A stretch of DNA of 57,383 bases, taken from the IMG/VR virus record IMGVR_UViG_3300028615_000012, positions 1-57,383 of that record; one strand, written 5' to 3'. The notes below the pieces were generated by a model, which saw only the letters and a list, made by a program, of their open reading frames with translations, did not search any database and was not told the origin of the DNA. Made by a program: the position numbers and the translations under genes. The stretch comes from a virus (lineage: Duplodnaviria > Caudoviricetes). Every line of letters starts with the position of its first letter. Position 1 is the stretch's first letter. This document shows, in pieces, positions 5,836-51,308 of this stretch.

Positions 5836-6696
5836 TTACGCCGCTGCCAGAGCCGAACCGTCATGCGCAACGATGCACACGCCAGAGTTCTGCAACAGCA
5901 CTGAGCCCATGTAGATCGAGCAACGGGCCCAGGTGTAATCCTGCTCCTCGTCGTAACCTACCCTCATTTCCATGTCGTCAGCGTTGTAGGCATGGCCGAT
6001 CGCTGACTTGTGGAACATGTACGTCTCCTCGGTCGCGGAACCGGGGCCACCACCGCCGTTCAGGTTCGGGTGCACCGTCCAGTTCATGCCGAGCCAACGA
6101 TAGCTGACCGGCCGGTCGCGCCACGCGAGATCCGCGGCATCCATCGGTCCGTTCATCGTGTAGTCACGGCTCGAGAAGTCGTTTTCGCCCATCATGTACG
6201 CCTCGTAGGCAGGCGTTACGACGAACGAGATCCAGCCGTCCCACGGCACATCGTTGTTGCCGAGAACGGTCTTGGCCCGCAGAGTGCGGAGCGTCGATGC
6301 AGTCGTCGCGACGCCGATGTTGACCGTCGACGTAGCGAGCTCGCCGAAAATGTCCTGATCAATCTTACGATTGATGACACCGACGGACGTCTTTTGCATG
6401 ATCGCGCGCTGGTTGCCCTGCGAGGCGAAGATGTTGAAATCGGTCTTGCGCACGAGATCGTGCCACTCGACCAGCGTTGCAACCGGCTGATTCAGGTTAT
6501 CGCCACGAGCCGGGATCAGGCCGTTGACGCCGCGCGTCTTGGCCTCGGCACCGCCGGAATCCGCGACAAGGAACGTCGCCTGATTGCCTTTGATGACCGC
6601 TTCGGTCGTGGTGAATCCCCGAATAAGCGAAACCAGCTGCTCGAAACCGGCAATAAATTCCTGCCGATATTGAATTTGAAAAGCAGTTTCAGCCAT
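5836..6696 (-). CDS. Major capsid protein (286 aa)
   Basis: AFQIQYRQEFIAGFEQ, INRKIDQDI, FHKSAIGHA motifs; GGAGG RBS; follows the scaffold gene. Confidence 0.92.
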   Translation of the reverse strand: MAETAFQIQYRQEFIAGFEQLVSLIRGFTTTEAVIKGNQATFLVADSGGAEAKTRGVNGLIPARGDNLNQPVATLVEWHDLVRKTDFNIFASQGNQRAIMQKTSVGVINRKIDQDIFGELATSTVNIGVATTASTLRTLRAKTVLGNNDVPWDGWISFVVTPAYEAYMMGENDFSSRDYTMNGPMDAADLAWRDRPVSYRWLGMNWTVHPNLNGGGGPGSATEETYMFHKSAIGHAYNADDMEMRVGYDEEQDYTWARCSIYMGSVLLQNSGVCIVAHDGSALAAA

Positions 6697-6734
6697 TGAG
6701 GCATCCTCCAAAAAGTGAAATGTCCATTTCCACT

Positions 6735-6840
6735 GATCGGGTTAGCCTGCGATTGGCTCTGCAAGGGTTAGCCGAGGATCGGGGCCTTGCTTCGCCGGCA
6801 GGGGCCGGTCGGCGCCGGGGCTCGAGTGAGGTTAGCCGGC
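6735..6840 (-). ncRNA. Structured 5' leader of the capsid mRNA with three identical CUAAC/CC internal loops
   Basis: GGTTAGCC at 6740, 6766 and 6830 pair with GGGGC(C/T) at 6781, 6801 and 6817 through flanking stems. Confidence 0.7.
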
Positions 6841-6858
6841 AACGTGGTAGCACGAGAG

Positions 6859-12359: not shown

Positions 12360-12628
12360 TCCGCGTCCGGCGCTGGCTCCGGCTTCGACTCGGCCGCAAT
12401 ACGCTCCTGCGCCTCGCGCTTCGTCTCCGTGATCTTCGTGTTCTGACGCACATTCCCGAACGTGAAATCGTCCTTGGCCTGCGCCTTGCGCCGATAATTC
12501 GCGCTCATGTTCTTCTTGATCTCGGCCTTGCGCGCCTCCTCCGATACCGGCTCCTCGGCCGCTACCTCACCCGGCTCGCTCACGGGCTGCTCGTCGACGC
12601 TCTCGCTCACGTTTGTTTCGTCGGACAT
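12356..12628 (-). CDS. Hypothetical protein (90 aa)
   Basis: Purine-rich RBS; ATGA coupling to the next gene. Confidence 0.65.
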   Translation of the reverse strand: MSDETNVSESVDEQPVSEPGEVAAEEPVSEEARKAEIKKNMSANYRRKAQAKDDFTFGNVRQNTKITETKREAQERIAAESKPEPAPDAE

Positions 12629-12767
12629 CCTCTTTCCCCTCCTCGATCACACGATCGAAATTTCGCCAAAATCGCGCCACAGCCGGCCCATCCGGTCGCT
12701 GACGCACATACCCATCGGGCCTGCGTAGTCTACGCCGACCCTTCCGATTGTTCACGCGCTTACTCAT
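12567..12767 (-). CDS. Arg-rich hypothetical protein (66 aa)
   Basis: AGGAGG RBS before ATG 12767 (MSKRVNNRKGRRR...). Confidence 0.5.
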   Translation of the reverse strand: MSKRVNNRKGRRRLRRPDGYVRQRPDGPAVARFWRNFDRVIEEGKEDVRRNKRERERRRAARERAG

Positions 12768-12823
12768 TTTCAGCCTCCTGTCGGGCAAAAGGCCACCGCC
12801 GCCACTCCTGGGCGCGGGGGCAA

Positions 12824-12840
12824 ACCGGAAATTTTCCGGT
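12824..12840. promoter_or_regulatory. 17-bp palindrome ACCGGAAA-T-TTTCCGGT, copy 1
   Basis: Exact copies at 26617-26633 and 51051-51067. Confidence 0.85.
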
Positions 12841-12956
12841 AGTTGCATGTGAAATAAAAAATGCGGGCGGTTTCAGAAAAAAATATGCGTGAGGGTGCTC
12901 CACCCCCACTATTAATCTGCGGAGCGGGCTCCCCCCCGTGGTAATCGGGACCCCTA

Positions 12957-13601
12957 TCACAATTCGTCAGGCGTGGCCGGGTCATCAGGCGGGCTTGCCG
13001 GAGTGTGATCGCCCTCACGAGGGCCAGCGCCGGCGGGCTGGTCTGGCGAGGCTGGCTCGGCCGTGCCTTCGAGCAGCGCACCCGCCCGGCTATCGTCGAG
13101 CATGAACGAGGCCAGCCGACGCATGCGCTCCCGGTCATCGAGGGTGACGGCCTGCGTCACCGTGCCGCTGTGCTCGTGCTGCACCCGGTCGCCGTAGACA
13201 CGGGGCGCCAGCTTGGCCAACAGGAACTTGCGCGTGTCCACCTGCAGGCGGGCCCGGCCGACGCTGGCGTGGTTGGCCGTGCCATCGGGCAGCACGTCGA
13301 GCGTGTCATCATCGGCGATCGCCAGCATGTCGTCGCTCATGGCTTCCATCCCGATAGCCCGCGCGCGCATGTACTGGTCGTCGAAGGCGGGATTCCGCAT
13401 GCGCCACCGGTGCACCGTTTGCCGTGTCGGCAGTCCGCGCGTCCGGCAGATGGCTGTGAGCGTCTCGCCGTCCGCCAGCCGTGCGCAGATGTAGTCGGCG
13501 ATCGCCGGGCTGTATTCTGATGGCCTTCCTGTACCCGGTACAGCTGAGGGGGTAGCAGTCTGCAGGGCTTGATGTGTCTGGCTCTCCGCGGGGTCGCTCA
13601 T
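12957..13601 (-). CDS. terS: Terminase small subunit (Sf6 gp1/P22-like HTH)
   Basis: GRPSEYSPAIADYICARLADGETLTAIC...TVHRW...RARLQVDTRKFLLAKLAPRVYGD. Confidence 0.9.
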   Translation of the reverse strand: MSDPAESQTHQALQTATPSAVPGTGRPSEYSPAIADYICARLADGETLTAICRTRGLPTRQTVHRWRMRNPAFDDQYMRARAIGMEAMSDDMLAIADDDTLDVLPDGTANHASVGRARLQVDTRKFLLAKLAPRVYGDRVQHEHSGTVTQAVTLDDRERMRRLASFMLDDSRAGALLEGTAEPASPDQPAGAGPREGDHTPASPPDDPATPDEL

Positions 13602-13653
13602 TGTCTGGATCTCCGGCCGTCGACGCTTCGGATTCTACCTATGCAATTGGGTA

Positions 13654-13682
13654 TTGACACCCGCGGGCCAATGGCCCATACT
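13654..13682 (+). promoter_or_regulatory. Early sigma70 promoter with a palindrome in the spacer
   Basis: TTGACA-N17-CATACT; GGGCCA-A-TGGCCC at 13665-13677. Confidence 0.85.
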
Positions 13683-13738
13683 CTAGGGTGCAGCATGGCA
13701 TATGGCCAGCTGCCGGGGCCGCAGACCCCGACAACCCG

Positions 13739-13751
13739 ACCCGAGGAGGTA
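13739..13751 (+). promoter_or_regulatory. Extended start-associated RBS motif ACCCGAGGAGGTA (first of 8 related copies)
   Basis: Exact copies at 16934 and 17995; partial copies at 17237, 19025, 19392, 26640 and 26853; each precedes an ATG. Confidence 0.85.
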
Positions 13752-13756
13752 ACGAA

Positions 13757-14170
13757 ATGACGAACCGCACCCCATGGACACCGGCCGAGAATGTCGCGCT
13801 GTGTCGTCTGTACTTCACCATGCTGGACGCAGCCCTCGACGGCCGCGACTACAACAAGGCGGCGTTGATCCGCAGCGCACAGGGCGCCGGCGACCAGTGG
13901 CAGAACGACAGCCACGACGCCGACGGTAACGCCGTGCTCCGCAACCGCAGCCGCGGCAGCATAGAGGCCAAGCTGATGAACGCCAGCGCAGCGCACCGTG
14001 ACCTAGTGCCGGGAGCCGAGACAATGGACGGCCACGGCTACCGGGCGCTGGCCAACTACCAAGCCGCGCTCAAGGAAGCGATGGCGGATGCACTCGCAGC
14101 CCGCGGCCACCGCTCGCAGGAATTGACAGCGCACTACGTTAAGCAGCGTGTCGTAGGGCAGCGCCCATGA
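13757..14170 (+). CDS. Stand-alone domain resembling the N-terminus of HNH/DUF3883 restriction-type nucleases (137 aa)
   Basis: WTPAEN..LCRLYFTML....RDYNKA...RSRGSIEAKLMNASA...GYRALANYQ; no nuclease motif. Confidence 0.55.
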   Translation: MTNRTPWTPAENVALCRLYFTMLDAALDGRDYNKAALIRSAQGAGDQWQNDSHDADGNAVLRNRSRGSIEAKLMNASAAHRDLVPGAETMDGHGYRALANYQAALKEAMADALAARGHRSQELTAHYVKQRVVGQRP

Positions 14171-15135
14171 TCGCCCGAGCCTACCGGCTGGACGTCACCC
14201 GACTGGCCGCGGACTATTCCGCGGCCGTTCGGGCGGCGCTCACCGACAACCAGCTGGCCAAGGTGCAGCGCGGCGACGCCGTCGCTGACGACTACACCGA
14301 CGCCGGCGAGATCCTCAACGAGTGCATCGCCGCGGCCGTGCCCGGCTGCACTATCGCCGACTACCAGCAGGAGGCCATCGAGGCGCAGCAGCGCGCGGTG
14401 GAGGCTGGCTATCGGCTGTCCCGCATTCTCGTCGCCTGCGAATTCTCAGGAACCGTGCGCGACGCTTTCGCAGCCTGCGGCCATGCCGCCGAGTCCTGCG
14501 ACATACTCCCGAGCGAATCGCCGGGAGGCATTCACCACCAGCGCGACGTCCGAGAGATCCTCGGCGACGGCTACCACCTGATGATCGCCCACCCGCCGTG
14601 CACGTATCTGGCCAGCAGCCAGCTGTGGCGGTGCAAACCACAACACGACGTCCGCGCCAAGACTGGGCACCCCGACGGCTGGCGCGAGGCGCAGCGTCAG
14701 GAAGCGTTACAGTTCGTGCGGGATCTCGCCGCGGCGCCGATCGAGCGCGCCTGCATCGAGAATCCCAAGGGCTGCATCGGCACCGAGGGCGCCGCGCCGG
14801 GCTTCACCCCGACAATGGTGCAGCCCTACGAATTCGGCCACGACGTCAGCAAGCAGACCTACCTATGGTTGCGCGAGCTCCCCGAGCTCAAACGCGACCC
14901 GGCCGACTATGTCGAGCCCCGCGTGATCGAGTACAAGGGCAAGCCGGCGAAACGGTGGGCCAACCAGTCGCCATGCGGCGCCGATCGCACCGGGCCGAGC
15001 GCCGACCGCGGCCACAAGCGCAGCCGGTTTTTCGCCGGCATCGCCCGCGCCATGGCCGAGCAATGGGGCGGGCTGGCCACACGGGCCCGCGCCACCGTGA
15101 CGCCGATCACGGCGCAGATGGAGCTCGGACTGTGA
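14167..15135 (+). CDS. Phage-type C5 cytosine methyltransferase-like protein with an N-terminal extension
   Basis: ILVACEFSG (motif I variant), AHPPC (catalytic Cys), IENP, QPYEFG..SKQTYLW, RSRFFAGIARAMAEQWG. Confidence 0.8.
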   Translation: MIARAYRLDVTRLAADYSAAVRAALTDNQLAKVQRGDAVADDYTDAGEILNECIAAAVPGCTIADYQQEAIEAQQRAVEAGYRLSRILVACEFSGTVRDAFAACGHAAESCDILPSESPGGIHHQRDVREILGDGYHLMIAHPPCTYLASSQLWRCKPQHDVRAKTGHPDGWREAQRQEALQFVRDLAAAPIERACIENPKGCIGTEGAAPGFTPTMVQPYEFGHDVSKQTYLWLRELPELKRDPADYVEPRVIEYKGKPAKRWANQSPCGADRTGPSADRGHKRSRFFAGIARAMAEQWGGLATRARATVTPITAQMELGL

Positions 15136-15917
15136 CCCCGCGCGACATGATCGAGGCCGGCGCGCTGGTTTTCGCGTCGCACTCCGGCGGCAAGGATTCG
15201 CAGGCGATGCTCGCCGAGCTCCGGACCCAGGTTCCCGCCGAACAGCTGGTGATCGTACACGCCAATCTTGGCGAGGTAGAGTGGCCCGGAGTCATAGACC
15301 ACATCCGCGCCAACATTGACGGCGACCAGCTGCACATAGTCCGCGCCGGGAAAACCCTGCTCGAAATGGTCGAGCGCCGCCACGAGTCACGGCCGGACGT
15401 CCCGCCGTGGCCGAGCGCGAAGCACCGCCAGTGCACGAGCGACCTCAAGCGCGGGCCGATCTACAAGTTTATCCGCCAGACCATGAAGGCGCGCGGCGCG
15501 ACGCTGGCTATCAACGCCATGGGCCTACGCGCCGAAGAATCGAGCGCCCGCGCCAAAAAGCAGCCGTGGACCCACAATGCGGCCCTGAGCAAGGCCGGCC
15601 GCACGGTTTACGACTGGCTCCCTATTCACGACTGGCCGACGGCGCGCGTTTTCGAGCGGATCGCCGAGGCTGGCCAGCAACCATTCCACGCATACGAGAG
15701 CGGAAACGAGCGCCTTTCCTGCATGTTCTGCATTCTCGGATGCACCGGCGACCTCCGCAACGCCGCCAGACACGCGCCGGAGCTCGCCCGCAAATACATC
15801 GAGCTCGAACGCCGCACCGGCTATTCGATGTTCCCTAATGCCACGCTCGCCGATCGTCTCGGCTGGAACCAGCCCGAGCCGGCCGCCGAGCCCGACCAAT
15901 TGGAGCTCGCCCTATGA
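15132..15917 (+). CDS. PAPS reductase/DndC-family PP-loop protein 1 (261 aa)
   Basis: GTG start coupled to the upstream stop; SHSGGKDS, RQCTSDLK, GLRAEES, RLSCMFC. Confidence 0.85.
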   Translation: MTPRDMIEAGALVFASHSGGKDSQAMLAELRTQVPAEQLVIVHANLGEVEWPGVIDHIRANIDGDQLHIVRAGKTLLEMVERRHESRPDVPPWPSAKHRQCTSDLKRGPIYKFIRQTMKARGATLAINAMGLRAEESSARAKKQPWTHNAALSKAGRTVYDWLPIHDWPTARVFERIAEAGQQPFHAYESGNERLSCMFCILGCTGDLRNAARHAPELARKYIELERRTGYSMFPNATLADRLGWNQPEPAAEPDQLELAL

Positions 15918-16933
15918 GCACAGCCCAGTTTGATCTATTCCGCGAGGCAGAGCCCGCGACCCAGGATGGCAGCCTGCAGCTGCCCGACGCGCCGCTGATT
16001 GTATGCTACGGCGGCGGCGTCGACTCGACGGCCATGCTTATACGCATGGTGCGCGAGGGCATACGGCCGGACGTGATCACGACGGCCGACACCGGCGGCG
16101 AAAAGCCGGAAACCTACGCCTACATCGAGCGGTTTTCGCGCTGGCTGGTTTCGCAGGGATTCCCCGCGGTGCAGCTGGTGAAGTACCAGACCAGCCGCGC
16201 GCCTTATAGCGACCTTGAAGGCAACAACACGGCAAACGAGACGTTGCCATCGCTGGCGTTCGGGATGAAAAGCTGCAGCATTAAGTGGAAGGCGCAGCCG
16301 CAGGATTACTACATCAAGGGCTGTAAGGGCGGCCCCAACCAGTGCGACCCGCACCCGGTATGGCTGGAAGCGCAGCGCCGCGGCGTGAAGCCTTGCAAGT
16401 TAATCGGCTATGACGCCGGCCCGGCGGATCTCCGGCGCGCTGGCCGCCTGAAAACGTCAGACGCCAGCTTTCAGTATGCCTACCCGTTGCAGCAATGGGG
16501 TATGGATCGCGGCGACTGCATCGCCCTAATACTCGACGAGGGTTTGCCCGTGCCGATTAAAAGCGCCTGCTGGTTCTGCCCGGCTTCGCAAAAGTGGGAA
16601 CTCTACTGGCTGGCCGGCAAACACCCGCGCCTATTCGAGCGCGCCCTACAGATGGAGCACCGCGCCATGGTGGGCCGGCATAGCCGCTGGCCATGGCGGG
16701 ATTGCGACTACGGCCCGGACTGGGAGCGCCTCATTCACGAGCCGGCCGACCAATGGCCGCAGGTAGATATTACCGTCGGCCTCGGACGCTCGTTCGCTTG
16801 GAATCACTGGGCCCGGCAAAACGGCGTAACCGACAGCGCCGGCCGCGTGATCCTGGACCCGCAGGAATGCCTACGGCGGGCCAATGAATTGAAAGCGCAA
16901 GGCGGCAATGCGGCCGACTTGCGGACATGCTAG
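15914..16933 (+). CDS. PAPS reductase-family PP-loop protein 2 (339 aa)
   Basis: YGGGVDS, DTGGEKPETY, CSIKWK, IGYDAG, YPL..WG, KSACWFCP. Confidence 0.85.
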   Translation: MSTAQFDLFREAEPATQDGSLQLPDAPLIVCYGGGVDSTAMLIRMVREGIRPDVITTADTGGEKPETYAYIERFSRWLVSQGFPAVQLVKYQTSRAPYSDLEGNNTANETLPSLAFGMKSCSIKWKAQPQDYYIKGCKGGPNQCDPHPVWLEAQRRGVKPCKLIGYDAGPADLRRAGRLKTSDASFQYAYPLQQWGMDRGDCIALILDEGLPVPIKSACWFCPASQKWELYWLAGKHPRLFERALQMEHRAMVGRHSRWPWRDCDYGPDWERLIHEPADQWPQVDITVGLGRSFAWNHWARQNGVTDSAGRVILDPQECLRRANELKAQGGNAADLRTC

Positions 16934-16951
16934 ACCCGAGGAGGTAGGACA

Positions 16952-17257
16952 ATGGCAACCAGCAAAGCAACACCCGACCGGCTAACCGTCACGGTTTACG
17001 AGGCCGGATCCGCTCAACTATTCAGCCAGACGTCGGCGATGTACTACGGCGAAGCCGGAACGCTGGCATGGGCGCTGGCTGGCCGCGCGTATCTGGCCGG
17101 CTATGAGCAGCCCGAAGTGTATCTAACCCGCAGCGACGGCCGGCGCATCGAGGTGACGCGCCCGAGCCGTGACGTCTGCGAAAGCGCCTATTACCGCGGC
17201 GCCCGATTTTGGGCCCAAGGCAATCAGCGTTATCAGCCCGAGGAGGTAACACAATGA
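16952..17257 (+). CDS. Hypothetical early protein (101 aa)
   Basis: Extended RBS motif at 16934. Confidence 0.8.
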   Translation: MATSKATPDRLTVTVYEAGSAQLFSQTSAMYYGEAGTLAWALAGRAYLAGYEQPEVYLTRSDGRRIEVTRPSRDVCESAYYRGARFWAQGNQRYQPEEVTQ

Positions 17258-17622
17258 GAACAGCACCGCTGCACAGCTACGAATTAGATCGCGAGACTTA
17301 CGAGGAGCAACGCGAGGGCGGCCGGTGGAATCCGGCTAGGGTTATCGTCTGGCGCGGCCAGCGTTACACGATAGAAGCCGGCATGGCCGACAACGTCGAC
17401 GTATTCACCGAGGGCGGCGCGCTGTATGTGCTGGCCCGGAATCGCGGCATGTCTTACGCCGGGCTGGAAGTATTCCGCGACGGCGAGCGCATCGCGGATA
17501 TTTTCGTCGACGAGAGCGAGCGCGGCGACTACCTGAACGAATTGACCCCGATATATGCCGCTAAACGGCTGGCCAACTGGGCCGACGCCGAGGGCGGGGA
17601 GGCTTTCGGCTATGACTACTAA
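17254..17622 (+). CDS. Hypothetical early protein (122 aa)
   Basis: Extended RBS at 17237; ATGA coupling. Confidence 0.8.
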   Translation: MRTAPLHSYELDRETYEEQREGGRWNPARVIVWRGQRYTIEAGMADNVDVFTEGGALYVLARNRGMSYAGLEVFRDGERIADIFVDESERGDYLNELTPIYAAKRLANWADAEGGEAFGYDY

Positions 17623-18016
17623 AGCATTTACGGCCGATTGCGGCCACGAGATCCCCGCGTTACCCGCCGGCCACTCCGGCGGGACTGGCTATGGCCGAGA
17701 CGCCGAGGGCCGGACGTTTTGCTATGAGTGCTGTGCGGCCCTGGATCGCCGCGACATGGCCGAGACTGGCCGCGCGGTGCTCTATCTCACAACCGAGGGC
17801 CACGCGAGCGGGCCCTATGTGCTCACCAATTGGCCGGGCACGTTACGGATACCCGTGCAGGCCGCGAGCTCCGGCCGGCATAACATCGCCGGCACCCGTA
17901 CCGATGTCTGGTTTAGCTTCGGCGGCCGGCGCTGGCACGGCGTCCAATACGGCGAATTTTCACAGCTGGCGCATTGCAGGCGCCTGAAAGCAACACCCGA
18001 GGAGGTAAGACAATGA
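17612..18016 (+). CDS. Hypothetical Cys-containing early protein (134 aa)
   Basis: GGGAGG RBS; DCGH, GTGYG, CYECC, TNWPG motifs. Confidence 0.8.
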   Translation: MTTKAFTADCGHEIPALPAGHSGGTGYGRDAEGRTFCYECCAALDRRDMAETGRAVLYLTTEGHASGPYVLTNWPGTLRIPVQAASSGRHNIAGTRTDVWFSFGGRRWHGVQYGEFSQLAHCRRLKATPEEVRQ

Positions 18017-18387
18017 ACCGACCAACCCTGAAACAGCGCCGCCTTGCGGCGTTCAAGGCGCTAGGCGCCGAAAACCCGCGAGCAGCTGGCCGCGCGTTCG
18101 ACAAGATCGAGCGCCGGCACCACCGGAAGGCGCTCGCCTACTGTAACGAGCCGCAGACGGACGGCTGGCTTGAGCTCTGGAACACACAAAAGCGCATGGA
18201 TCTCGCCGCGCTTCGCGAACTATTGCCGGCGGTCCAGGATGGCGCTTTTTTTGTGAATCAGGACCCGCGCGGTTTTGCTATCAAGCTGGACAACGAAACC
18301 GAGGCAGGCCGCGCCGCGATCGAGCTCGCCGGCTGCGTTACTGACTGGGGCGGCTACGGCCTGCTGCAGTCGGAGGCGTACCAGTGA
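18013..18387 (+). CDS. Hypothetical early protein (124 aa)
   Basis: Extended RBS at 17995; AYCN and NQDPRG motifs. Confidence 0.8.
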   Translation: MNRPTLKQRRLAAFKALGAENPRAAGRAFDKIERRHHRKALAYCNEPQTDGWLELWNTQKRMDLAALRELLPAVQDGAFFVNQDPRGFAIKLDNETEAGRAAIELAGCVTDWGGYGLLQSEAYQ

Positions 18388-18833
18388 GGGCGCACAGGCT
18401 GCCGGCGCCAGAGCCCGGCAAACCGTGGACCCGCTCGCCCGTGTATCGAGCGCAATGCGTCACCGCTCGCGTTTTCTGCCGGCTGTTCGGAGCAGTCGGC
18501 AACGTGAGCAAGGGCCCGGATCCGCGCTATTTTCTGCGCGTCCGGTCCAAGTACCGCGGCGAGCAATGCCTGCGCATGCGTAAGCAGGCGGCCGACGTGA
18601 TCCGACTGGCCCGGCGCCACGGCTCGCTATTCGAGGCCGTGCAGGCTGCAGGAATCGAGCACGACAACCACGAGACGGACCTGTATCTGCCGGCCACGCC
18701 GGAGGCGCTGGCCCTGCTGGCATGCTTTCCGCTGAACGACAAAAACGCGGAGCGGTTCACCAGTGCCATAGATGCGTCGCCCTGGATAGATGTGCCGTTC
18801 GCCTATTTGCCGGGATGGGAGGCCAAGCCATGA
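18384..18833 (+). CDS. Hypothetical early protein (149 aa)
   Basis: GTGA coupling; C-terminal NHETDLY...WIDVPFAY domain. Confidence 0.7.
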   Translation: MRAHRLPAPEPGKPWTRSPVYRAQCVTARVFCRLFGAVGNVSKGPDPRYFLRVRSKYRGEQCLRMRKQAADVIRLARRHGSLFEAVQAAGIEHDNHETDLYLPATPEALALLACFPLNDKNAERFTSAIDASPWIDVPFAYLPGWEAKP

Positions 18834-19000
18834 GGCTACGAGACTGGATCCGCGAGAATCGCGAGGACATAGACGCGGCCATACTGTCGACGCCGGGGAT
18901 GGAAGGCTACAAGCTGAACGATGACGAGCGCGCCGACTGGATCCGCAACGACGAGGGCCTATATAACTGGGCCCGCCGCGATCTTCGGCGCAACCCATAA
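18830..19000 (+). CDS. Hypothetical early protein (56 aa)
   Basis: GGGAGG RBS; WIRNDEGLYNW motif. Confidence 0.75.
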   Translation: MRLRDWIRENREDIDAAILSTPGMEGYKLNDDERADWIRNDEGLYNWARRDLRRNP

Positions 19001-19039
19001 GGCGCGCGCCGTGCAGATATATGACGAGGAGGTAAGACA

Positions 19040-19411
19040 ATGAAAGACAGAATGCAAGCATGGGACTGGCCCAGTGTTCGCGATCGCTTCGCGACCCTTT
19101 CAGACGCGCTGGAAATGCCGCCGGATAGTTGCGGCGAGCTCGCCCAGGAACTACAGGATATTGCCGGCTGGATTGCCCTGCAGGGCGCCAGCAAGGCGGG
19201 GGTGTTTTGGGCTTGCCCGACTTGTGGCTGTACCGAAATCGAGGGGCAGGCATGGGTACACCTGAACGAGGACCGGCTATCGAATAGCGAACCGCCGTCC
19301 GATTATTATTGGTGTCCGCAATGCGACATTAACGGCGATGACGGACATTTTGAGAACGGTTGCCCCGAGGCCCAGGAATGGCGGCCGATAACCGAGGAGG
19401 CTACACAATGA
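19040..19411 (+). CDS. Zn-ribbon early protein (123 aa)
   Basis: CPTCG and WCPQC pairs; extended RBS. Confidence 0.8.
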   Translation: MKDRMQAWDWPSVRDRFATLSDALEMPPDSCGELAQELQDIAGWIALQGASKAGVFWACPTCGCTEIEGQAWVHLNEDRLSNSEPPSDYYWCPQCDINGDDGHFENGCPEAQEWRPITEEATQ

Positions 19412-19587
19412 GCACAGAAACAATCGGGTATGCGAACGTCGATTGTTACGATGATGTCTGGCGTTGGTGCATTGTGGCCAACTATGACGGCCAATGCGGC
19501 GACGTTCTGTGCGTTCTGCACGACGAGCAAGGCGGGCCGATGCACGAGCTCGCCGAGCGAATCATCACGAGCGGGGTGCTGCGATGA
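19408..19587 (+). CDS. Hypothetical early protein (59 aa)
   Basis: CCGAGGAGG RBS; ATGA coupling. Confidence 0.7.
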   Translation: MSTETIGYANVDCYDDVWRWCIVANYDGQCGDVLCVLHDEQGGPMHELAERIITSGVLR

Positions 19588-19787
19588 TGAAGCCAGACGT
19601 GCGAATGCACACCCAGGACCCCGTGTATTTCCGCCAGCTGGTCGAGTCGTCGGGGATGTCTCCGGCCGAGCTAGGCAGGCTGATCGGCCACGACGAACGC
19701 ACTATCCGGCGCTGGATGTCTGGCGAGCGTAAATTTAGTTACGCCGTGCAATTTATCGTCGAGTCCGTCGTGCTGAGTCCGGAATAA
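19584..19787 (+). CDS. XRE-type HTH regulator, last gene of the early operon
   Basis: SGMSPAELGRLIGHDERTIRRWMSGER helix-turn-helix. Confidence 0.8.
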   Translation: MMKPDVRMHTQDPVYFRQLVESSGMSPAELGRLIGHDERTIRRWMSGERKFSYAVQFIVESVVLSPE

Positions 19788-20166
19788 TCAGGGAGTGCGT
19801 CACGCGGTCATTGTTGGGCCGCAGGAATTCGGTGCCCTTATGCGTCGGCAAGTCATCGCCCTCGCGTATGGGCACCGATCGCTCTGCGCGCACGACACCG
19901 AGGCGCGGCCGAGGGCCGAACGGCGTCGCTTGCTGCACGATGACAAGGCAGTCGCCCGGCGATAGCTGGATGTCGCTATTGAGCACCGGCGTCCGGATTA
20001 TCACCTGATCCCCCGGCACCCGCCGAATGTCGACCTCGAAATCCTCAAGAAACCGCACGAGCTCCTCGACGTTTTCGACGCGCCACTGGATCCAGGGCAC
20101 GTCGGGCATGTCGGTCGGGACCGGCAGCTTGTTCAGGTAACGCTGGTTTACTTTGACTCGATCCAT
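19753..20166 (-). CDS. Hypothetical protein (137 aa)
   Basis: Last ORF of the leftward middle operon, converging on the early operon. Confidence 0.7.
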   Translation of the reverse strand: MDRVKVNQRYLNKLPVPTDMPDVPWIQWRVENVEELVRFLEDFEVDIRRVPGDQVIIRTPVLNSDIQLSPGDCLVIVQQATPFGPRPRLGVVRAERSVPIREGDDLPTHKGTEFLRPNNDRVTHSLIIPDSARRTRR

Positions 20167-20290
20167 TTACCGCTCGCATGCAGGCGCTCGGGAACCGAGG
20201 CAGGGCCCGCTATTCGTTCGATCTCCCCGCAGACCAGCCGGACCTTTGGCCATGGCGCATTTTTGCGCACGATGATAGGCCGGAGGACTG

Positions 20291-20737
20291 TCAGGTAATC
20301 GCTGCATCTCTCAACTCTCTCCAATGTCGCCGGATCTTGTGTTGCACTTGGCGAGGCAGATTGTATTCGGGCCATGGGTCCTCCGCAAATATGGCCAGCA
20401 GGACGTTCTGGACCGGCACGAGGACGTTGACCTCGTCGCCGAAGGTTTCCTCGAACTCCTTGCGCCCCCAAGGCAGGGGAGGGCCGAGCTCGCCGGACAT
20501 GCGCTGCCGTGTCTGGTCGGGCTCGGTCTGGCCGAAGTGGTGCCATGCACATAGGCCGATCGTCCATTGATGCTGCTCCTCGTCGCCGACGCGCCGCCCA
20601 TGCTCGGTGACGTGCTCGATCGTAGTGTGCACGTCCTTGTAGCCCATCAGGAGACAAGGCAGGCAGCCGCAAAACTTGGCGATCGTGTCCATGCGGTCCG
20701 CGTCCTGGGTCCGAATCGGCTTTGTTTTGCCTACCAT
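20291..20737 (-). CDS. Ref/DUF968-like HNH-type Zn nuclease
   Basis: GCLPC...IEHV...HQWTIGLCAWHH...FEETFG pattern. Confidence 0.75.
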   Translation of the reverse strand: MVGKTKPIRTQDADRMDTIAKFCGCLPCLLMGYKDVHTTIEHVTEHGRRVGDEEQHQWTIGLCAWHHFGQTEPDQTRQRMSGELGPPLPWGRKEFEETFGDEVNVLVPVQNVLLAIFAEDPWPEYNLPRQVQHKIRRHWRELRDAAIT

Positions 20738-20985
20738 CAGGCCGTCTCGGTGGGGGTGGGAGAATTGTTTTTCCTTTTTCCCACCGGCCGGAACGCCGCA
20801 TTGATCATGTTCTGGCGCTGGCGAGTCGACAGGCCGCCGGCGCACACTGGAACCTTGCCTTCGAGCACGGTTTTCACAGCGTATTCGCTAATCCCCAGAT
20901 AGTCCGCGATCTTTTTACGGCCGAGGCCGAGCTCGCTGAATTCACGGATCCGCTGCATGTCGTCATCGCATATTGTCTGGCTCAC
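20737..20985 (-). CDS. Small HTH DNA-binding protein
   Basis: GLGRKKIADYLGISEYAVKTVL; GTGA coupling. Confidence 0.7.
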   Translation of the reverse strand: MSQTICDDDMQRIREFSELGLGRKKIADYLGISEYAVKTVLEGKVPVCAGGLSTRQRQNMINAAFRPVGKRKNNSPTPTETA

Positions 20986-37858: not shown

Positions 37859-40800
37859 CTAATCATCCCTGCTCGGCCCGAATAAATACTCGTACAGGGC
37901 CGTGTCATCATCCTCGAAAATTGCCCGATATGTCTTGCTGATCTGGCCAGTCGGCGTGTGTGTTGCTGTACCCACGACATCGAGGAACGCATCGACGGCC
38001 GCAGCATCCGCCTCTCCTTGTCCGGCTTGCTCGATCAGTCGCCAGCTGTCGTTCAAGAATACTCCGACTGGCGTGTTGCCGCCGCCATACTTCGCGGCGA
38101 GGAGCTCGCGGGCATACGGTACACCGGAAATCATTGAGTCTGCGGTGACTGCTGCAGTCCACTTGGCCCACTCCTCCGGCTCATCTTCCTCCTCCGGAAG
38201 CCGGTTATACAGTAGCGCGGAGGCCATGCCCTCGACCGTGAACAGAAGGAACATGTCGGCCGTGTACTTCGCAATCTGAGCCGGACTACGGAAGTTGGTC
38301 GACTTGGTTTTTTCGTAAGCAATGTTGCCCTTGGCCAGCATGTAGGACAGTAGCGTCGACCATATCCTGATCCACTGGGACTGACGGTTTTTGCGCAGGC
38401 CGCTGGTGCCACGCTCGAAACCAGAGCGATCAGAGAAAAAGCCGCTGGTCTGTGATGCCTCGACCTGAGTGTCCGCGTAAATGACCGCGTCGGCCTCGGA
38501 GAGCTCGAGCTCATTCAGCCCCTTGTGGTAGGCACCGAGCCATGTCGTGATGTCGACCACCTGCTGCGCTTTGGCGATCGGGAGAAAATACGTGTAGGCG
38601 AGCCGCGTCATAACGACTTTACTGGCCGTTGGCGTCGTGCCAAAAATGCTCTCGAGATGCGCGCGAGTGTCCTGCACGTCCTTGTTCCACGCGCCGATCT
38701 CATAGCGAGCGTTCAGAAACTTCGACGTTTCCATGACATGCTTCCACGCGGCCCGCGGATTCTGCATGAACTTGCCGAGGCCGCGGCCGTAGTGTGTCGC
38801 GCCGATAACCGCAATCGTCTGAAAGACGCCGGTGAACTGCAGGAACATGACTGCCATGTTCCAGCCGAGTTTCGCCTTTGTGAATCCCGTGCGTATCCAA
38901 GCGGTGCTCGCCTCCCAGATGTTTTCGCTTGGGAGCTCGCCCACGGCCGCGTCAGTGAGCCAGAGATTGAGCGCCTCGAGGGAATGCTCGTTGCCCGTTT
39001 TCTTGAACGCCTTGCGGACCTCACGGGAATCGAGCAGCCGCTTGATGTAGAGCGTTTCATCGCCTATGGCAATGTCGCGAATAACCTCGCGCAAATGCGT
39101 GTCGATATTGTTGAGGCCCAGTCGCACCACCTTGCCGTGATTGCGAACGCGATTGTAGGTTGCGCCGGCTCGCGTGTTCGCTGTCACCATTGAGCCGAAA
39201 GCGACCCGGTTGAACTCGTCCTGTATGTCCTGCGGCGCCGCTTCGGCCTCATAGCTTGAATCGTATCGGAGCGGATAGTAGCCGCCGGCCAGCGTTACCT
39301 CAGTGCCGTCGGCCGTGCGGATCGTGAACGGCAACGGCTCCACCTTTTGCGGAGCCACGCCGCGTCGACGCTTTTCAGCCTCGAAAATCTGATCTCGATA
39401 GGTGTCCAGATAATCCCAGATCCCCTGCACAAAACCCCAGTCCTGCGCCGTCAGATGCGCCAGCATTTCATCCACAGCCTGCTGCGTAAACACTGGTGCA
39501 CCCTCGTCCACGCCGCCCAGTAACGCCGCTCGGTTCGACTGTGACCCCCAGTTAAGCGCCACGGACAAAATCTCCGATCGCGAATAGGTGCGATCCAGCG
39601 ACTCGATCCGAATGTTTCGCTTGGCCAGCTGACCGAGCTCGGCTTTCGAGTAATGCTGTTGATAAATTTTGGACACATCCTCCTGCGCCTTGTGCAGCAT
39701 CGGGATCAATTTCTCAGCGTAAGCCCGCCGCATTGGCGCAATGATTCGCCGGGTCAGCGCACCAAATCCGGCGTTATCCAGGACGCGGGCAATCGAACTC
39801 GGTCGCAACCATGTGCGTATGCCCTGATCAATGCTCTTGCTAACCTGCTCGCGACCAGTGCGGACGCCACCCGGCCGGAGATCAATGCGCTCATTGTTTT
39901 CAAACAGTGACTCGACGACGTCGGCCTCGGCTTCCGAAAAGTCGACCCACTGATCGTTGACGTAATGCTTGTTGCTCGCGACCGCGGAGTGCTCGATCTG
40001 TTTGACCAGATCGCGCATGCCCATGAATTCCTCGAGCGTGAGATCCTGCCAGTTCACGCGGTCATCAAAGATCCGCGCCAGTGTCGAAGGCGTGACAATG
40101 AACCGGCCCTTTTCTACGTCGTCACGAAGGCTCTGCAGTCGCTTATCCATGTCGACCTGTGTCAGCGATCGACGGCGCAGATCAACCCCCTCGAGGATTG
40201 CCTGTATGTCCTCGAGCACACCGGCCTTACCCATCTTGCGTTGAATCGTTGGCCGATTGAATTTCGACAGATACCGCTGGCCAGCTTGTGCATCGCGCTG
40301 CGCTTTGTTTGCCGCGCGCCACATCTCGAGCGCATTGATCTGCTGCATCTTGTGCTTGTAGGCGGCCTGATAGTCTCGTCGCCGCATTGCCTCGAACGCC
40401 ATGCGTCCCGCTTTTCGCTCGGCCGCGAGATACTGGTGCGGCTTGATGTTGCGGATCTCTTTGGCTGCAATCGCCTGCCGGGCGGCAGCGCGAATCATCT
40501 GCACTTCCTTGCGACTTGGCAGCTGCGCTTTGTTGGCGGCGATGGCCTCGCGCTCCTGCCGACGCTCGGCCTGCTGCGCAGCGCGTACTGCCGGCCTGTC
40601 CTCGCGAACCATCCGCCGGAGAGCTCGCAGTTCTGCAGCAAGGATTTCCGCGCGCTTGTGATCGTGTACGGCGCGCACGGCATTGTCAGCCAATGTGCCG
40701 TCCGTCAATGGATCCGGATAGAGCTCGAGCATGCGGCGATCGGTTTCGGCTTTGATCCACGCCTTCATCTTTGGCGCCTTGATCATCTCCTCGATCATTT

Positions 40801-43800
40801 TCATGGCGTCTTTGTAGCCGAACATCTGCGCGGCTACCTGGACGTCGGTGCCGCCGTCCCGGCTGTAGATGTACGGCTTCGGCAGGCGATTGAGCATGGA
40901 CTGATCGCCGGCAACGAGCTCGAGCAGGGATTCTTTGTCGATCTTGAACGGGGCCGTCGGCGACGGCTCACCGTTGGGCTGCTGATCTTTTTGCAGCTTC
41001 GCAAGCGCCACATAGACGCGCGTGTTGTACGCCTCCTCCTCCACTTCGGCCTGAATAGCCTTGCGCTGCTCCTTCCACCACGCCAGCTGATCACGCCGCA
41101 TGGCTTTGATTAGCCGTCGTGTCTCGCGATCAACAGCATCATCATGCGCCGCCTGCAGTCGTCGCTTGTAGAGCGTGAACTCCTCCTGCGACATGCGCGC
41201 CTCCTCGGCGTTCAGGAACAGCGCGGAAAAGCCGTGTGACTCCTCGGCCAGTTTGATCTGCTCGTCACTGGCCAGCATGCGGTCCATAACGCCGCGGACC
41301 TCGTCGGTTAGCTCGACATTGGCCATCTGCGTCAGCTTGCGGTAAATCGCCTGCAGCCAGCGACGGAACGCATTGAACGAATCCTGTAGCTCGAGACTGG
41401 GGGCCTTGCCCTCCATCGTGTATTTCTCAAACGCCCGTGCCCACTTTTCGTGATGCTCGGTTGTTATCTGTGAGCCATCGGTGACGCCAAGGAAATTCAG
41501 AATTTTCGACCAGTCATCTTTGATCTGTTGCGGAGCGTCCTCCATGGCAGCAACACGACGCATGACTTCCAGATACAGATGCCCGGTTTCGTGAATGAAC
41601 GTCGAAAAGTCCGCGTTCTCGGTCAGACGGATGTAGCCTCGGCGCAAATCATCAAAGTCGATGTAGCCTCGCTCGTCCTGTTTATAGCGCCCATCCTTCG
41701 GCGGGATCGTGCCCTGATCCGCGCGGCTTTTGAGCTCGTCGCCGTACAGGTGATCCAGGAACCGGAAGTCATCGGCGAAATTGACGATGTTCTGCACCGC
41801 CTCGGTCGCCAAGTCGGGTGTAACCATGGCAAACGCCGATGCGTTTGTTGCATCCAATGCCTGAAAAAATGCCGCCGCGCCACCGCTCGATCGCAAGTTT
41901 TCCATCTGCTCTGTTGTCAGCGCGATGTGACCGATCAGTCGGTGTCGATTGTCGAGCAGATAAACGCCGGGATTTCGGCCAGCCTGCCGAATCATCGTGC
42001 GCATTGATTCGGGTCCTGTAATCGGCGCGGCGTCTGAGGGCGCAGCGACCAGTATTCGTTCTGTAACCGGAACACGCTTTTTGCGCCGCGCTTTTGTCGG
42101 CACGATCGGACCCAAGTCGCTGCCGTCTGCCGCCATGCGCCCCGCCTTACCGCCGGCGGCGACAATCACATGGCCCATGATGGTGACGCCGGTGCCGGCC
42201 AGCGTGTCCTGCAGCTTTTTCGTAATTCGCGCGTCGGCTTGTGACGGCTCGTTTTTGCCCGAAGGATGGTTGTGGCCGAACCAAACGTATTTCGCGCCCT
42301 TCGTATTGTGGATAGCGCCTGCCAGAACACTCGGAAAGACACCTGCGCCGTCCGTCGTGCCCTTCGTATGATGTATGACGGCGATCGGTTTTTGCTGCTC
42401 ATCCAGCACCAGCGCGACGAAATTCTCCTGCGCATTTTTTCGCACAGGCGCCAGAACATGCGCGGCATCTTCCGGTGTTTCGACCTTGTCAATGCCGATG
42501 TTAAATTGCTTGGTTTCCTCGTGCTTGACGCGAATCTTGTAGTTCGCAATAGATTCGGATTCGCGTATCTTGCCGGACAACGCGGCCGCACCGTACATGT
42601 CGCTGTCGACTGGCTCGCGCACCATATCGTCGCCGTCCTGTTCGGCAGGATTCAGTCCAGTCGACGTGTCGATGTAGTTACCGCTTTCATCGACGATGAT
42701 GCCGCGGTCCGGCTCCTCGAGCACGGTCCGAGGATCCTCGAGCAGCTTGTGCAGCTGGCTGTTCTGGCCAGCCTGCGGATTGACTGCACCCTCTGGCGCT
42801 ACAATGCCTCCCTCTCGATAGCCCGCCGCCACTCGATCACGCTGGCTGATTCCCGTAGCAGCTGCAGCGCCCGGTTGTACTTCATCTGCAGCACCCGGCC
42901 GTTCTGCACCCCGAGGCTCTGGTTGCGTAGGGTCAGTAATATCGCCTCGAGTTCCTCTTTGTTCTGTCCCGACATCTTGGAGGCTGTTGCCAAGATTGTT
43001 GAAAGAGTCGATGTCCTGCGCGTCCGCGAGCCACCGGTAGATTTCGTGGTTGGCATTGAGCGTATCCTCCAATCGTTTCCGCAACCCGGCCATGACTTTC
43101 GGCTCCTGGATCGCGGTCGCCATGGCGTTCTGCAAAGCAAAAATAAAATCATTGTCGTGCGACCACTCCGCGTAGTGAGCAATCTCGTGGATCATCGTGG
43201 TCAGCATCGACGCGGCTGTTACGTTGGCCGGCACTTCCCGGCCGTCCGTCTCGGCACGGGTACGCAACTCGCGAGGATCGGCCGCCGGGTTTATAAACAT
43301 CATCTGGCCCGGCACCTTGGTATGGACGCCGTAGTGCATCGGGCCCAATACGCTGACGCCGGCACCTATCTTGTCCAGACCGCCAAACATGTTTTTGTCG
43401 CCCTTGACGGCGATCAAATTGCGGGTGTCCAAAAACACCCGGCCGATCTCGTAAAAGTATTTATGGACCCGCTCCTCGCCGAACTTGTCGTAGAGCGCAT
43501 CCATGAGATCCGAGCCGGCGTACTCCTCGTGAGTCGACAACAATAGCTGGCGATCGTCTTTGAATTTCTTTTGGTTGTGCAGGATTGGTTCTTTGTTCGG
43601 AATTAAATCCTGATCGACCTGATACTCCGAAGTATCTACCCCGCTCAGATCTCGCATTTCCTCCGGCGTAATACGCTGCTGCTCGATGCCATCGACCACC
43701 AGAACACCGTCACGAACCTCGAGCATCGAACCCTCATCGAGACGCTCGACCAGACCTCCCCGCTGCCGCTCAGGCGGTTCCAGTTTGAGCTCGGGGCCGC

Positions 43801-45622: not shown

Positions 45623-45840
45623 TAGCGATCCTTCACATCGAGCCACGCCTTGATGACAAGGAGCAGGAGCTCGTCCTCGAGCATGATTCTACGCCACCGC
45701 GCCTCTGCGTCCTCGCTGGTGCCCGGCGGAAATGTCGGCTCCGGCGTGAACGGCGGCGGCGGAACGACGCCGGTCCTGCCGTAGTGCGATGACAGGTTGT
45801 GCGAGCTCGCGTAATGAGATCCTCCATAATGGCTGCTCAT
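45622..45840 (-). CDS. Small protein with SSHY repeats and a Pro linker (72 aa)
   Basis: Overlap-coupled; ends EDELLLLVI. Confidence 0.7.
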   Translation of the reverse strand: MSSHYGGSHYASSHNLSSHYGRTGVVPPPPFTPEPTFPPGTSEDAEARWRRIMLEDELLLLVIKAWLDVKDR

Positions 45841-50888: not shown

Positions 50889-51308
50889 TTAGTGAGTAGT
50901 CGGTCGCGCCGGTGTCGCCACAATCCGCTGTGCGAACCCTCGGCCATCGCGTTTTATTTCAAATTCGTAGGATCCCCCGTTGTCGTTCCGCTCCCGCTCC
51001 TCCTTCATTTCGGAGAGGATTTGGACGACCGGGGTCAGATCTATTTCAGAACCGGAAATTTTCCGGTTTTCGCCTTGCTTGCGGATCATGGCCTGCAGCG
51101 TGGCCAGAATCTCGAGATTGGTCTGGTTGCGAGCGATGTCAGCGCGAATGCGCTCCTCCTCATTGGCTGCCATCGTCTTGAGGACGTCGATCAGATCGCC
51201 CAGTTGCTCGACTTGCATCGGTTTTGCCGGAAATTCGACAGATGCGCCCTTTTTTTGCAGCCGGCGGATCTGCCCCAAAGACATAGTTTTTTCAGTCACT
51301 TGAGGCAA
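50889..51308 (-). CDS. Hypothetical coiled-coil protein (139 aa)
   Basis: C-terminal FEIKRDGRGFAQRIVA hairpin; contains palindrome copy 3. Confidence 0.7.
   Translation of the reverse strand: MPQVTEKTMSLGQIRRLQKKGASVEFPAKPMQVEQLGDLIDVLKTMAANEEERIRADIARNQTNLEILATLQAMIRKQGENRKISGSEIDLTPVVQILSEMKEERERNDNGGSYEFEIKRDGRGFAQRIVATPARPTTH
51051..51067. promoter_or_regulatory. 17-bp palindrome, copy 3 (intragenic)
   Basis: ACCGGAAATTTTCCGGT, identical to the copies at 12824 and 26617. Confidence 0.8.

Follow-up and report, generated by a model that had tools for sequence, protein, structure and literature searches.

A phage cassette of a C5-methyltransferase-like pair and two PAPS-reductase-like proteins as a candidate modular anti-restriction island

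Do four overlapping phage genes encode one new DNA-modification pathway, or are they a set of separable modules? This question is raised by positions 13,757 to 16,933 of the IMG/VR virus record IMGVR_UViG_3300028615_000012 (Duplodnaviria; Caudoviricetes). The full record of 57,383 bp, which is complete (CheckV 100%), is called the window here, and the four genes of the cassette are named g1, g2, g3 and g4 in 5′ to 3′ order. All of them are co-oriented on the plus strand, and each shares 4 nt with the next: g1 at 13757–14170 (137 aa), g2 at 14167–15135 (322 aa, ATGA overlap with g1), g3 from 15132 (GTG, with a GTGA overlap) or 15147 (ATG) to 15917 (261 aa), and g4 at 15914–16933 (339 aa, ATGA overlap with g3). 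An initial annotation, made from the sequence alone, had taken them as a stand-alone reader domain, a C5-methylase-like protein and two enzymes of the phosphoadenosine phosphosulfate (PAPS)-reductase/DndC family, which together would write an unusual modification on phage DNA. In our analysis, the reading that fits the cassette best is a modular anti-restriction island and not a single new pathway.

Gene neighbourhoods and the g1-g2 pair

We surveyed IMG/VR with each of the four proteins and scored the flanks of the loci with hidden Markov models (HMMs) of the four families; all contig counts hold within the flanks available. For g2, 80 of 529 tblastn-confirmed loci were kept, for g3 80 of 256 confirmed loci, and for g4 there were 25 loci. 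As a small gene, g1 was found in 14 contigs, namely the window, 12 IMG/VR contigs and contig L195, and g2 directly followed it in all 14. Eight of these contigs also held g4, and seven held g3. Five contigs had the order g4...g1-g2-g3, and the window and L007 had g1-g2-g3-g4. The place of g3 between g2 and g4 was taken in L008 (5121–5961) by two unrelated small open reading frames (ORFs) of 173 and 92 aa.

The view from the other genes was similar. Among the 80 g2 loci, 7 held g1, 1 held g3 and 2 held g4. The six closest g3 loci (63–72% identity) held g1, g2 and g4, one more held g2, and the other 73 of the 80 had g3 alone. None of the 25 g4 loci held g1 or g2, and two held g3. In short, g1 and g2 are a constant pair, and g3 and g4 are frequent, close but dispensable companions. 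The four genes, which the initial annotation had taken as one system, are therefore not obligate partners, and outside these contigs both g3 and g4 mostly stand alone.

The protein g2 is made of a helical N-terminal extension (residues 1–85; 14167–14421, plus strand; helical in the model), which is the predicted docking site of g1, and a putative catalytic core (residues 86–305; 14422–15081, plus strand). The core has a C5-cytosine methyltransferase (C5-MTase)-like fold, in which a small insert replaces the large target-recognition domain. The phrog_757 family "DNA methyltransferase" matched g2 with E = 7.5e-46. Its family is large, with at least 7819 proteins at E up to 0.001 among 8000 candidates scored, and 157 records were found in cultured phages, mostly annotated as DNA or DNA-cytosine methyltransferases (e.g., Bcep1 gp12). 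Indeed, g2-family methylases are common solo genes in phages.

In C5-MTases, motif IV carries the catalytic Pro-Cys, motif VI is of the Glu-Asn-Val type, and motif I, which binds S-adenosylmethionine, has the consensus FxGxG. In g2, we found HPPC at residues 142–145 and ENP at 198–200, and C145, E198 and P200 were invariant in 50 g2-family sequences. The region of motif I reads C-E-F-S-G-T (residues 91–96, with EFSG at 92–95); it holds one glycine only, and S94 and G95 were nearly invariant.

The AlphaFold model of g2, made from the 50-sequence alignment, reached a predicted local distance difference test (pLDDT) of 91.2 and a predicted template modelling score of 0.88. The best Foldseek matches were C5-cytosine methyltransferases (E from 3.3e-6), and all 50 PDB entries listed in the VIA re-alignment of residues ~85–305 were C5-MTases. 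For instance, DNMT3A (9prw_D) gave Z = 13.1 and a root-mean-square deviation (rmsd) of 4.4 Å over 199 aligned residues, M.HhaI (1fjx_A) gave Z = 12.6 and 4.0 Å over 193 residues, and M.HaeIII gave Z = 12.4. The target-recognition region of g2 is short where the large bacterial C5-MTases have their domain, and DNMT3 enzymes as top matches fit this short region. A PDB sequence search with g2 returned chance matches to RNase M5 only. Thus, the C5-methylase-like call of the initial annotation holds at the level of fold and of motifs (HPPC and ENP), with an atypical motif I, and the enzyme activity of g2 is putative.

For g1, no family was found in Pfam or PHROG. The first ~105 of the 280 positions of the PADLOC candidate defence protein PDC-S36 matched it with E = 8.6e-16. 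A HMMER pass over 1.84 billion protein representatives gave 140 relatives of g1, most of them 100–150 aa long. Ten longer relatives were scanned, and in five of them (275–290 aa) a NOV_C restriction-endonuclease-like domain came after an N-terminal g1-like domain; these fused proteins matched g1 with E-values of 7.7e-5 to 8.1e-4. In addition, the ESM Atlas model of g1 resembled the N-termini of ScoMcrA_N+NOV_C, HNH and MvaI/BcnI nucleases (template modelling score 0.65–0.69 by query), which is a lead only; the link to ScoMcrA_N is a single Atlas structure match with a score of 0.69. In the PDB, the g1-family profile found no chain, only a chance match to SPC34. These matches agree with the initial family call, that of a domain otherwise found N-terminally in restriction-type nucleases, and g1 looks like the N-terminal domain of NOV_C/McrA-type nucleases, copied without the nuclease part. 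The "head" domain of ScoMcrA has no known function according to the available part of PMC6224610.

A scan of genome contigs with the g1 profile gave only two loci, L195 (a 54.6-kb contig of a metagenome-assembled genome) and L196, and in these two there was no sign that g1-bearing phages are prophages. The sole clearly bacterial locus was L196, on a Janibacter limosus contig. Its ORF of ~282 aa at 6001–6846 has a g1-like start and no g2-family gene within 6 kb, and it is probably a nuclease of the PDC-S36/NOV_C type.

The association of g1 with g2 was also seen in the proteins themselves. The N-terminus of g2 was matched in all seven g2 loci with g1 and in none of the 73 loci without g1 (80 IMG/VR loci). 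Furthermore, the complex prediction for g1 and g2 gave an ipSAE of 0.82 (runs 0.82, 0.80 and 0.83), and none of three controls scored above 0.00. The runs were at least 92% concordant in their contacts, and the pLDDT of the partners was at least 86. Of the 80 solved complexes used to calibrate this score, 58 attained the mark, as did 2 of 110 mismatched pairs; this is only a rough guide here because custom alignments were used. The predicted interface joins residues 24, 39–51 and 62–78 of g2 with residues 2–7, 34, 64–75 and 94–105 of g1, and it holds 13 of the 20 invariant or near-invariant residues of g1 (W7, K34, R64, S68, E70, K72, M74, N75, G94, Y95, N100, Q102 and L105). Hence g1 is predicted to dock on the lineage-specific N-terminal extension of g2. 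The earlier picture of g1 as a stand-alone, independent reader was set aside, because g1 always lies next to g2 and would, by the prediction, be a subunit bound to it.

The two PAPS-reductase-like proteins

The protein g3 matched the Pfam family PAPS_reduct (PF01507) with 39.4 bits, above the gathering cut-off of 22.5, and phrog_424 with E = 7.2e-40. The corresponding score of g4 was 14.2 bits, below the cut-off; g4 was placed in the PAPS_reduct superfamily by phrog_424 (E = 6.1e-26), by the hhalign alignment to g3 and by its fold (Z = 13.6). In PADLOC, g3 matched BrxP (4e-17), DndC (1.3e-8) and SspD (2.5e-8), and g4 matched SspD (1.4e-13), where the SspD and BrxP matches are E-values without curated cut-offs. 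Against the DndC equivalog TIGR03183, g3 scored 29.8 bits (cut-off 290.4) over profile positions 108–200 only, and g4 gave no match. A PDB sequence search found nothing for g3 and only an artefactual match to designed PPR repeats for g4.

The hhalign comparison of g3 with the g4 family showed 23% identity and placed SGGKDS on GGGVDS, QC(T)SD on SC(S)IK and CMFC on CWFC. The three cysteines C121, C219 and C222 of g4 align with the C..CxxC of g3; they were invariant in 41 g4-family sequences, and G33, G35, D37 and S38 were nearly so. The g4 family counts 2358 members at E up to 0.001, and the best 120 of them share 55–86% identity. At the C-terminus of g4 is the sequence ...RTC (16922–16930, plus strand), and R-[TSPR]-C was found within the last five residues in 84 of 120 homologues. 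Taken together, g3 and g4 appear to be distant paralogues in the PAPS-reductase/PP-loop superfamily, with BrxP, DndC and SspD as the nearest relatives. The initial call of two divergent members of this family is thus borne out by Pfam, phrog_424, PADLOC and the fold. Likewise, the motifs that it had quoted were all present (HPPC and ENP in g2; SGGKDS, QCTSD, GLRAEES and CMFC in g3; GGGVDS, KSCSIKWK and CWFC in g4), and they are not due to chance, because they are conserved across the g2-family and g4-family sequences mentioned above.

The model of g4 had a pLDDT of 83.5. In the VIA re-alignment, its matches included the PAPS reductase 7rge (Z = 13.6, rmsd 4.2 Å, 175 aligned residues), the E. 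coli PAPS reductase 1sur (Z = 13.2) and the [4Fe-4S] tRNA thiolase TtuA (5mkp; Z = 12.4, rmsd 2.7 Å, 167 aligned residues). Among the cysteine-dependent or [4Fe-4S] PP-loop enzymes, LarE (Z = 12.0) and the thioguanine enzyme YcfA (Z = 11.4) were also matched. A full PP-loop with three conserved cysteines is the signature of ATP-pyrophosphatase iron-sulfur sulfurtransferases, such as DndC and TtuA, and not of CysH, in which the PP-loop is degenerate and the catalytic cysteine lies in a C-terminal ECGLH-type motif. Both g3 and g4 keep the full PP-loop; g3 has no ECGLH-type motif at its C-terminus, and g4 ends with RTC as described. The cysteines were compared with those of DndC through the profile matches and the general features of the superfamily; no true DndC gene for a comparison of residues was found in the genomes G001 and G002, nor in 201 sampled genomes of one class.

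The partners of such enzymes were searched for in the 57-kb record. Neither a cysteine desulfurase (Aminotran_5; control positive in 14 of 14 genomes) nor DndD was found in it. SspABC, BrxC, PglZ and BrxL did not turn up in general scans of the window ORFs, in which no search with their own models was made. No other sulfur-assimilation gene was found among those scanned for in the record. The initial annotation had stated that DndA, DndD, DndE and sulfate-assimilation genes are absent; this stands for a DndA-type gene, for DndD and for the sulfur genes scanned, and it does not extend to DndE, for which the search of the record was blank and the control equally silent. A canonical Dnd or Cys pathway, which had been doubted from the start, was rejected, since DndA and DndD are absent and the DndC cut-off was not reached.

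Outside the cassette, g3-type genes lie mostly among lambdoid early genes. Their immediate neighbours in Pfam included one Dam and one Mom among 145 ORFs. This count is weak, since wrong-frame overlapping ORFs were picked at least in L114–L118 and Pfam has no model of the g2 family, and the HMM counts of the flanks are for these reasons the better measure. In Pseudomonas phage Dolphis (L113, 3501–5479), the g3-type "PAPS reductase" gp103 overlaps the start of the DNA methyltransferase gene gp104, and in phage PseuP_222 a g3-type gene follows an adenine methylase gene. In Dolphis, gp104 is followed by an "adenylosuccinate synthase" gene, and a MazEF pair lies just upstream of gp103. Within 2.5 kb of the g4-like loci (L085–L108; 146 ORFs at 24 loci), we found DUF932 (5) and DUF7227 (4), together with one N6/N4 methylase, a further PAPS-like gene and an anti-restriction protein of the ArdC type; no desulfurase was among the neighbours. 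By family, DUF932, DUF7227 and ArdC would be company of the kind seen in anti-defence islands.

Terminal peptides and the reading of the cassette

Three of the four proteins carry beta-clamp-binding-like peptides at their ends: QMELGL at the C-terminus of g2 (15115–15132), QLELAL at the C-terminus of g3 (15897–15914) and QFDLF, within MSTAQFDLF, at the N-terminus of g4 (15926–15940), all on the plus strand. Q-L-x-L-F at protein ends is given as the beta-clamp-binding consensus in the available part of PMC4549789. We used the pattern Q-x-x-[LM]-(F or x-[LFI]) within 16–20 residues of the protein end, and only three of the 64 window ORFs matched it there, namely g2, g3 and g4. The motif was at the C-terminus of 118 of 120 close g2 homologues; with a stricter pattern, 115 of the 120 matched, versus none of 2161 internal 14-residue windows. 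For g4, 43 of 120 homologues had it at the N-terminus, versus 7 of 1413 internal windows.

The peptides follow the g1-bearing lineage. In g1-bearing loci, the motif was found in g2 (8 of 12), g3 (5 of 6) and g4 (6 of 6), and the misses were close to it: four g2 proteins end in QLALI or QLELI, and one g3 ends in QLSLI. In relatives outside this lineage, the counts were 1 of 65 for g2, 1 of 75 for g3 and 0 of 22 for g4. The tails are of low confidence in both models, g2 and g4, including that which holds QMELGL, and they are probably flexible. In our opinion, the same type of tag on three unrelated or distantly related enzymes in one lineage is the strongest sign of a common workplace, and this workplace would most simply be the DNA at the host replisome. 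The clamp-binding-like termini, together with BrxP, DndC and SspD as nearest profile matches, make a DNA-directed role more likely, and the cassette as a whole is in all likelihood DNA-directed.

We proposed that the cassette is an early accessory anti-restriction island of two modules, both brought to the replicating DNA by clamp-mimicking terminal peptides; our belief in this proposal is about evenly balanced. The first module would be a two-subunit cytosine-C5 methyltransferase, formed by the g2 core with its small target-recognition insert and by g1, which would dock on the N-terminal helices of g2 and most likely help to target or regulate the enzyme. The second module would be g3 and g4, a pair of paralogues of the DndC/SspD/BrxP kind that combine an ATP-pyrophosphatase-type PP-loop with three conserved cysteines. 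By means of host sulfur donors, these two would most likely adenylate DNA and thiolate it afterwards, or overcome phosphorothioation-based defence in some other way. The terminal peptides of g2, g3 and g4 would tether the enzymes to the host beta sliding clamp, and newly copied phage DNA would be marked to escape the host defences. The gene structure, the folds, the placement in families, the co-occurrence and the conserved terminal peptides are shown by the data, and the contact between g1 and g2 is a prediction; clamp binding, methylation, sulfur chemistry, the anti-defence role and the early timing are what we infer. A bolder form of the proposal is a clamp-tethered, replication-coupled machine, in which the two-subunit C5-methylase and the two iron-sulfur PP-loop enzymes would ride on the host beta clamp and write a sulfur-containing or other adenylation-dependent mark (a phosphorothioate or a thio-base) on nascent phage DNA without any DndA/D/E or SspA/B/C partner, and this we consider rather unlikely.

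Several findings weigh against the two-module proposal. For g2, the Pfam search (E up to 0.1) gave only a chance SAMP match with the C5-MTase model silent, and motif I is EFSG, not FxGxG. The conserved surface of g1 is also kept in nuclease-fused relatives without g2 nearby, so the primary role of g1 may differ (e.g., DNA binding) and the interface may be over-confident. The score of g3 stayed far below the DndC cut-off, and the phage lacks the partners that DndC and SspD need (the desulfurase and DndD), so that phosphorothioation would have to rely on host factors or on a different chemistry. Six of the 14 g1-g2 contigs are without g4 and seven are without g3, which argues against one joint pathway, and the other cassette genes are absent at 73 of the 80 g3 loci and 23 of the 25 g4 loci. 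The modification genes beside g3-type genes were few in the Pfam count. In addition, the clamp motif is only five or six residues long.

It is very improbable that g3 and g4 are auxiliary sulfur-metabolism genes, that is, CysH-type PAPS or adenosine phosphosulfate (APS) reductases that boost host sulfate assimilation and stand beside a methylase by chance. This would agree with their database name, "phosphoadenosine phosphosulfate reductase", and with the best structural matches of g4, which are assimilatory PAPS and APS reductases. However, both proteins keep the full SGGxDS-type PP-loop typical of ATP pyrophosphatases, unlike CysH, and have no ECGLH-type motif at the C-terminus. Furthermore, their profile matches are the DNA-modifying BrxP, DndC and SspD, they carry clamp-binding-like tails, and the record gave no other sulfur-assimilation gene in the scans.

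A single concerted pathway would have g2 modify a cytosine, g3 and g4 adenylate and then thiolate or amidate it into a hypermodified base, and g1 serve as the reader or targeting factor. The separate occurrence of the parts makes this unlikely: the g1-g2 pair is found without g3 or without g4 in about half of its contigs (7 and 6 of 14), no g2-family gene was present at 73 of the 80 g3 loci and at any of the 25 g4 loci, and two unrelated ORFs replace g3 in L008. Nevertheless, the four genes overlap, they stay together in seven contigs despite a changed order, and the three enzymes have lineage-specific terminal peptides in common; PP-loop enzymes also adenylate base carbonyls, and YcfA, TtuA and GMP synthetase are among the structural neighbours of g4. 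Another reading is that g3 and g4 modify nothing and are decoys or inhibitors, which bind and tie up the partner proteins of host Dnd, Ssp or BREX type 4, or else the clamp itself, with g1 as a dominant-negative decoy of type IV nucleases. The homology of g1 to nuclease N-termini and the lack of partner genes for sulfur transfer in the phage would suit such decoys, and the mechanism of the published anti-Dnd PAPS domain is not known from the available part of its source (10.1101/2021.05.05.442762). But the g4 family keeps the PP-loop and the three cysteines fully or almost unchanged, and g3 keeps them as well, as expected of working enzymes. In addition, g1 as a small gene always came with g2, its predicted docking partner; we think this reading quite improbable.

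The cassette has some wider meaning. Of the "metabolic" genes that lack an explanation in phages, archaeal viruses and some CRISPR or BREX loci, PAPS-reductase homologues belong to the most common. The lineage-specific clamp-docking-like tails on the PAPS-like enzymes and the methylase point to replication-fork DNA as the substrate, and the predicted two-subunit methylase gives a possible role to a nuclease-associated domain. Genomes with zero, one or both PAPS-like genes are natural deletion controls. Should the bolder form, autonomous clamp-tethered thiolation, be true, it would be a minimal DNA thiolation route free of DndA/D/E and SspA/B/C, and methylase docking or targeting would be the first function for the nuclease "head" domain. 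If g3 and g4 thiolate DNA alone, DNA phosphorothioation or base thiolation would gain a minimal tool in them; otherwise, the cassette would still be a tidy example of an anti-restriction island.

Genome context and likeness to known systems

A sigma-70-like promoter sequence, TTGACA-N17-CATACT (13654–13682, plus strand), sits in the intergenic gap between the cassette and the divergent small-terminase gene (12957–13601, minus strand; Sf6_terminase, E = 2.8e-35). It agrees with the consensus at 10 of 12 positions and is a consensus match only; in the region 12600–20400, two promoter-like sites were found versus 1.5 expected from shuffles, i.e., no excess. We regard it as a sensibly placed candidate. 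The initial description of four coupled genes after this sequence is correct as to the 4-nt overlaps and the presence of the sequence. A second promoter-like site, GTGTCA-17-TAGAAT (13632–13660, minus strand, 9 of 12 positions), points towards the small-terminase gene and shares bases with the −35 box of the plus strand, which suggests that the two sites may be a back-to-back divergent promoter pair.

Podovirus-like structural and packaging genes (tail protein, head-tail adaptor and large terminase) occupy the minus strand of the window. One DNA sequencing run, from a marine sediment metagenome, matched the window and may be its source sample; no RNA run was listed with it. A megablast of 13600–17300 against cultured phages gave no match. 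Past the cassette, seven small plus-strand ORFs at 16952–19587 had no Pfam or PHROG family; a homologue of one of them (17251–17622) lies directly after g2 in L005 and L006 and after g4 in L007. The ORF at 20291–20845 (minus strand, 184 aa) matched RecA_dep_nuc (PF16786, E = 5.8e-9), the family of RecA-dependent nucleases. In addition, the minus-strand ORF at 37859–45646 (2595 aa) matched phrog_9880 over residues 1309–2577 (E = 1.7e-260) and a "DNA repair protein" PHROG over residues 1032–1166, and the ORF at 51296–53869 had a weaker match to the PHROG of this large ORF. By these matches, both ORFs look like large, possibly injected, virion proteins of the polyvalent type.

The pairing of a PAPS-like protein with a DNA methylase, which had seemed novel at first, has a published precedent. 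As described in the available part of Piel et al. (bioRxiv 10.1101/2021.05.05.442762), Vibrio crassostreae podophages encode one protein in which a PAPS domain at the N-terminus is joined to a Dam domain at the C-terminus. When its gene and a neighbouring gene were moved into a sensitive phage, full plating on a Dnd-carrying host was obtained. This anti-Dnd effect is the single genetic result on PAPS-reductase homologues that we found in the literature, as far as the sources were available. PAPS reductases are also listed, in the part of PMC13551039 available, among Aca-regulated candidate anti-defence genes or operons. Meanwhile, a 2024 paper, in its available part, names PAPS-reductase homologues in lambda, marine phages, archaeal viruses, type IV-B CRISPR and BREX loci and considers them worth studying (PMC11437467). 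In our literature search, in which papers on clamp motifs were judged by title, no description was found of clamp motifs on phage PAPS-like enzymes or of the g1-g2 pair. Hence phage methylases and PAPS-like anti-defence genes are the known part of the cassette, and the docking subunit, the two paralogues and the shared tags are the new part.

The nearest likeness is to the Vibrio podophage p0018, in which a PAPS-reductase-family domain and a DNA methyltransferase are likewise physically joined and lie within a variable anti-defence region, with no DndA, DndD or DndE in the available description (10.1101/2021.05.05.442762). However, p0018 has a single fusion with an N6-adenine methylase, whereas the cassette has separate genes, a C5-type methylase with a subunit, two paralogues and clamp-like tails; by description, the two are set apart. 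DndC, SspD and BrxP are the PAPS-reductase-family parts of phosphorothioation systems and of type 4 BREX, according to the available parts of PMC12839542, PMC12707154 and PMC8569181. They share the PP-loop ATP-pyrophosphatase fold and the conserved cysteines with g3 and g4 and are their best PADLOC matches, but g3 and g4, which are short, showed none of the DUF4007 or Mog1p-like additions that BrxP is described to have. The stand-alone "PAPS reductases", single-copy genes of many temperate phages, are 50–59% identical to g3, but they lack the tail motif (one of 75 has it) and the partners g1, g2 and g4.

For the methylase, the closest sequences are the short phage methyltransferases of phrog_757, such as those of Burkholderia phage Bcep1 (gp12) and Rhizobium phage Pasto, with 38–48% identity to residues 86–305 of g2 and the same conserved motifs. 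These proteins begin at the core and end right after ...AMAEQWGG, whereas g2 adds the N-terminal extension for g1 docking and a C-terminal QLxL[F/L] tail. The catalytic domains of DNMT3A/3B, M.HhaI and M.HaeIII have the same fold (Z of 12.4–13.1 over ~190–200 residues) with PC and ENV-type motifs, and DNMT3 and g2 are alike in their small target-recognition region. However, the sequence identity to these enzymes is only 10–15%, and g2 differs from them in the missing Pfam C5-MTase match and the atypical motif I. Among the nuclease "head" domain proteins, PDC-S36 and those of the NOV_C type have N-termini homologous to g1, and those of ScoMcrA and of the HNH and MvaI/BcnI types resemble it in the Atlas structure matches, but g1 is without the nuclease domain. 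Finally, beta-clamp clients such as polymerases and insertion sequence (IS) transposases carry a terminal QLxLF or QLxLxL peptide after a flexible linker, as g2, g3 and g4 do (PMC4549789, available part). Here, by motif alone, the would-be clients of the clamp are phage DNA-modifying enzymes.

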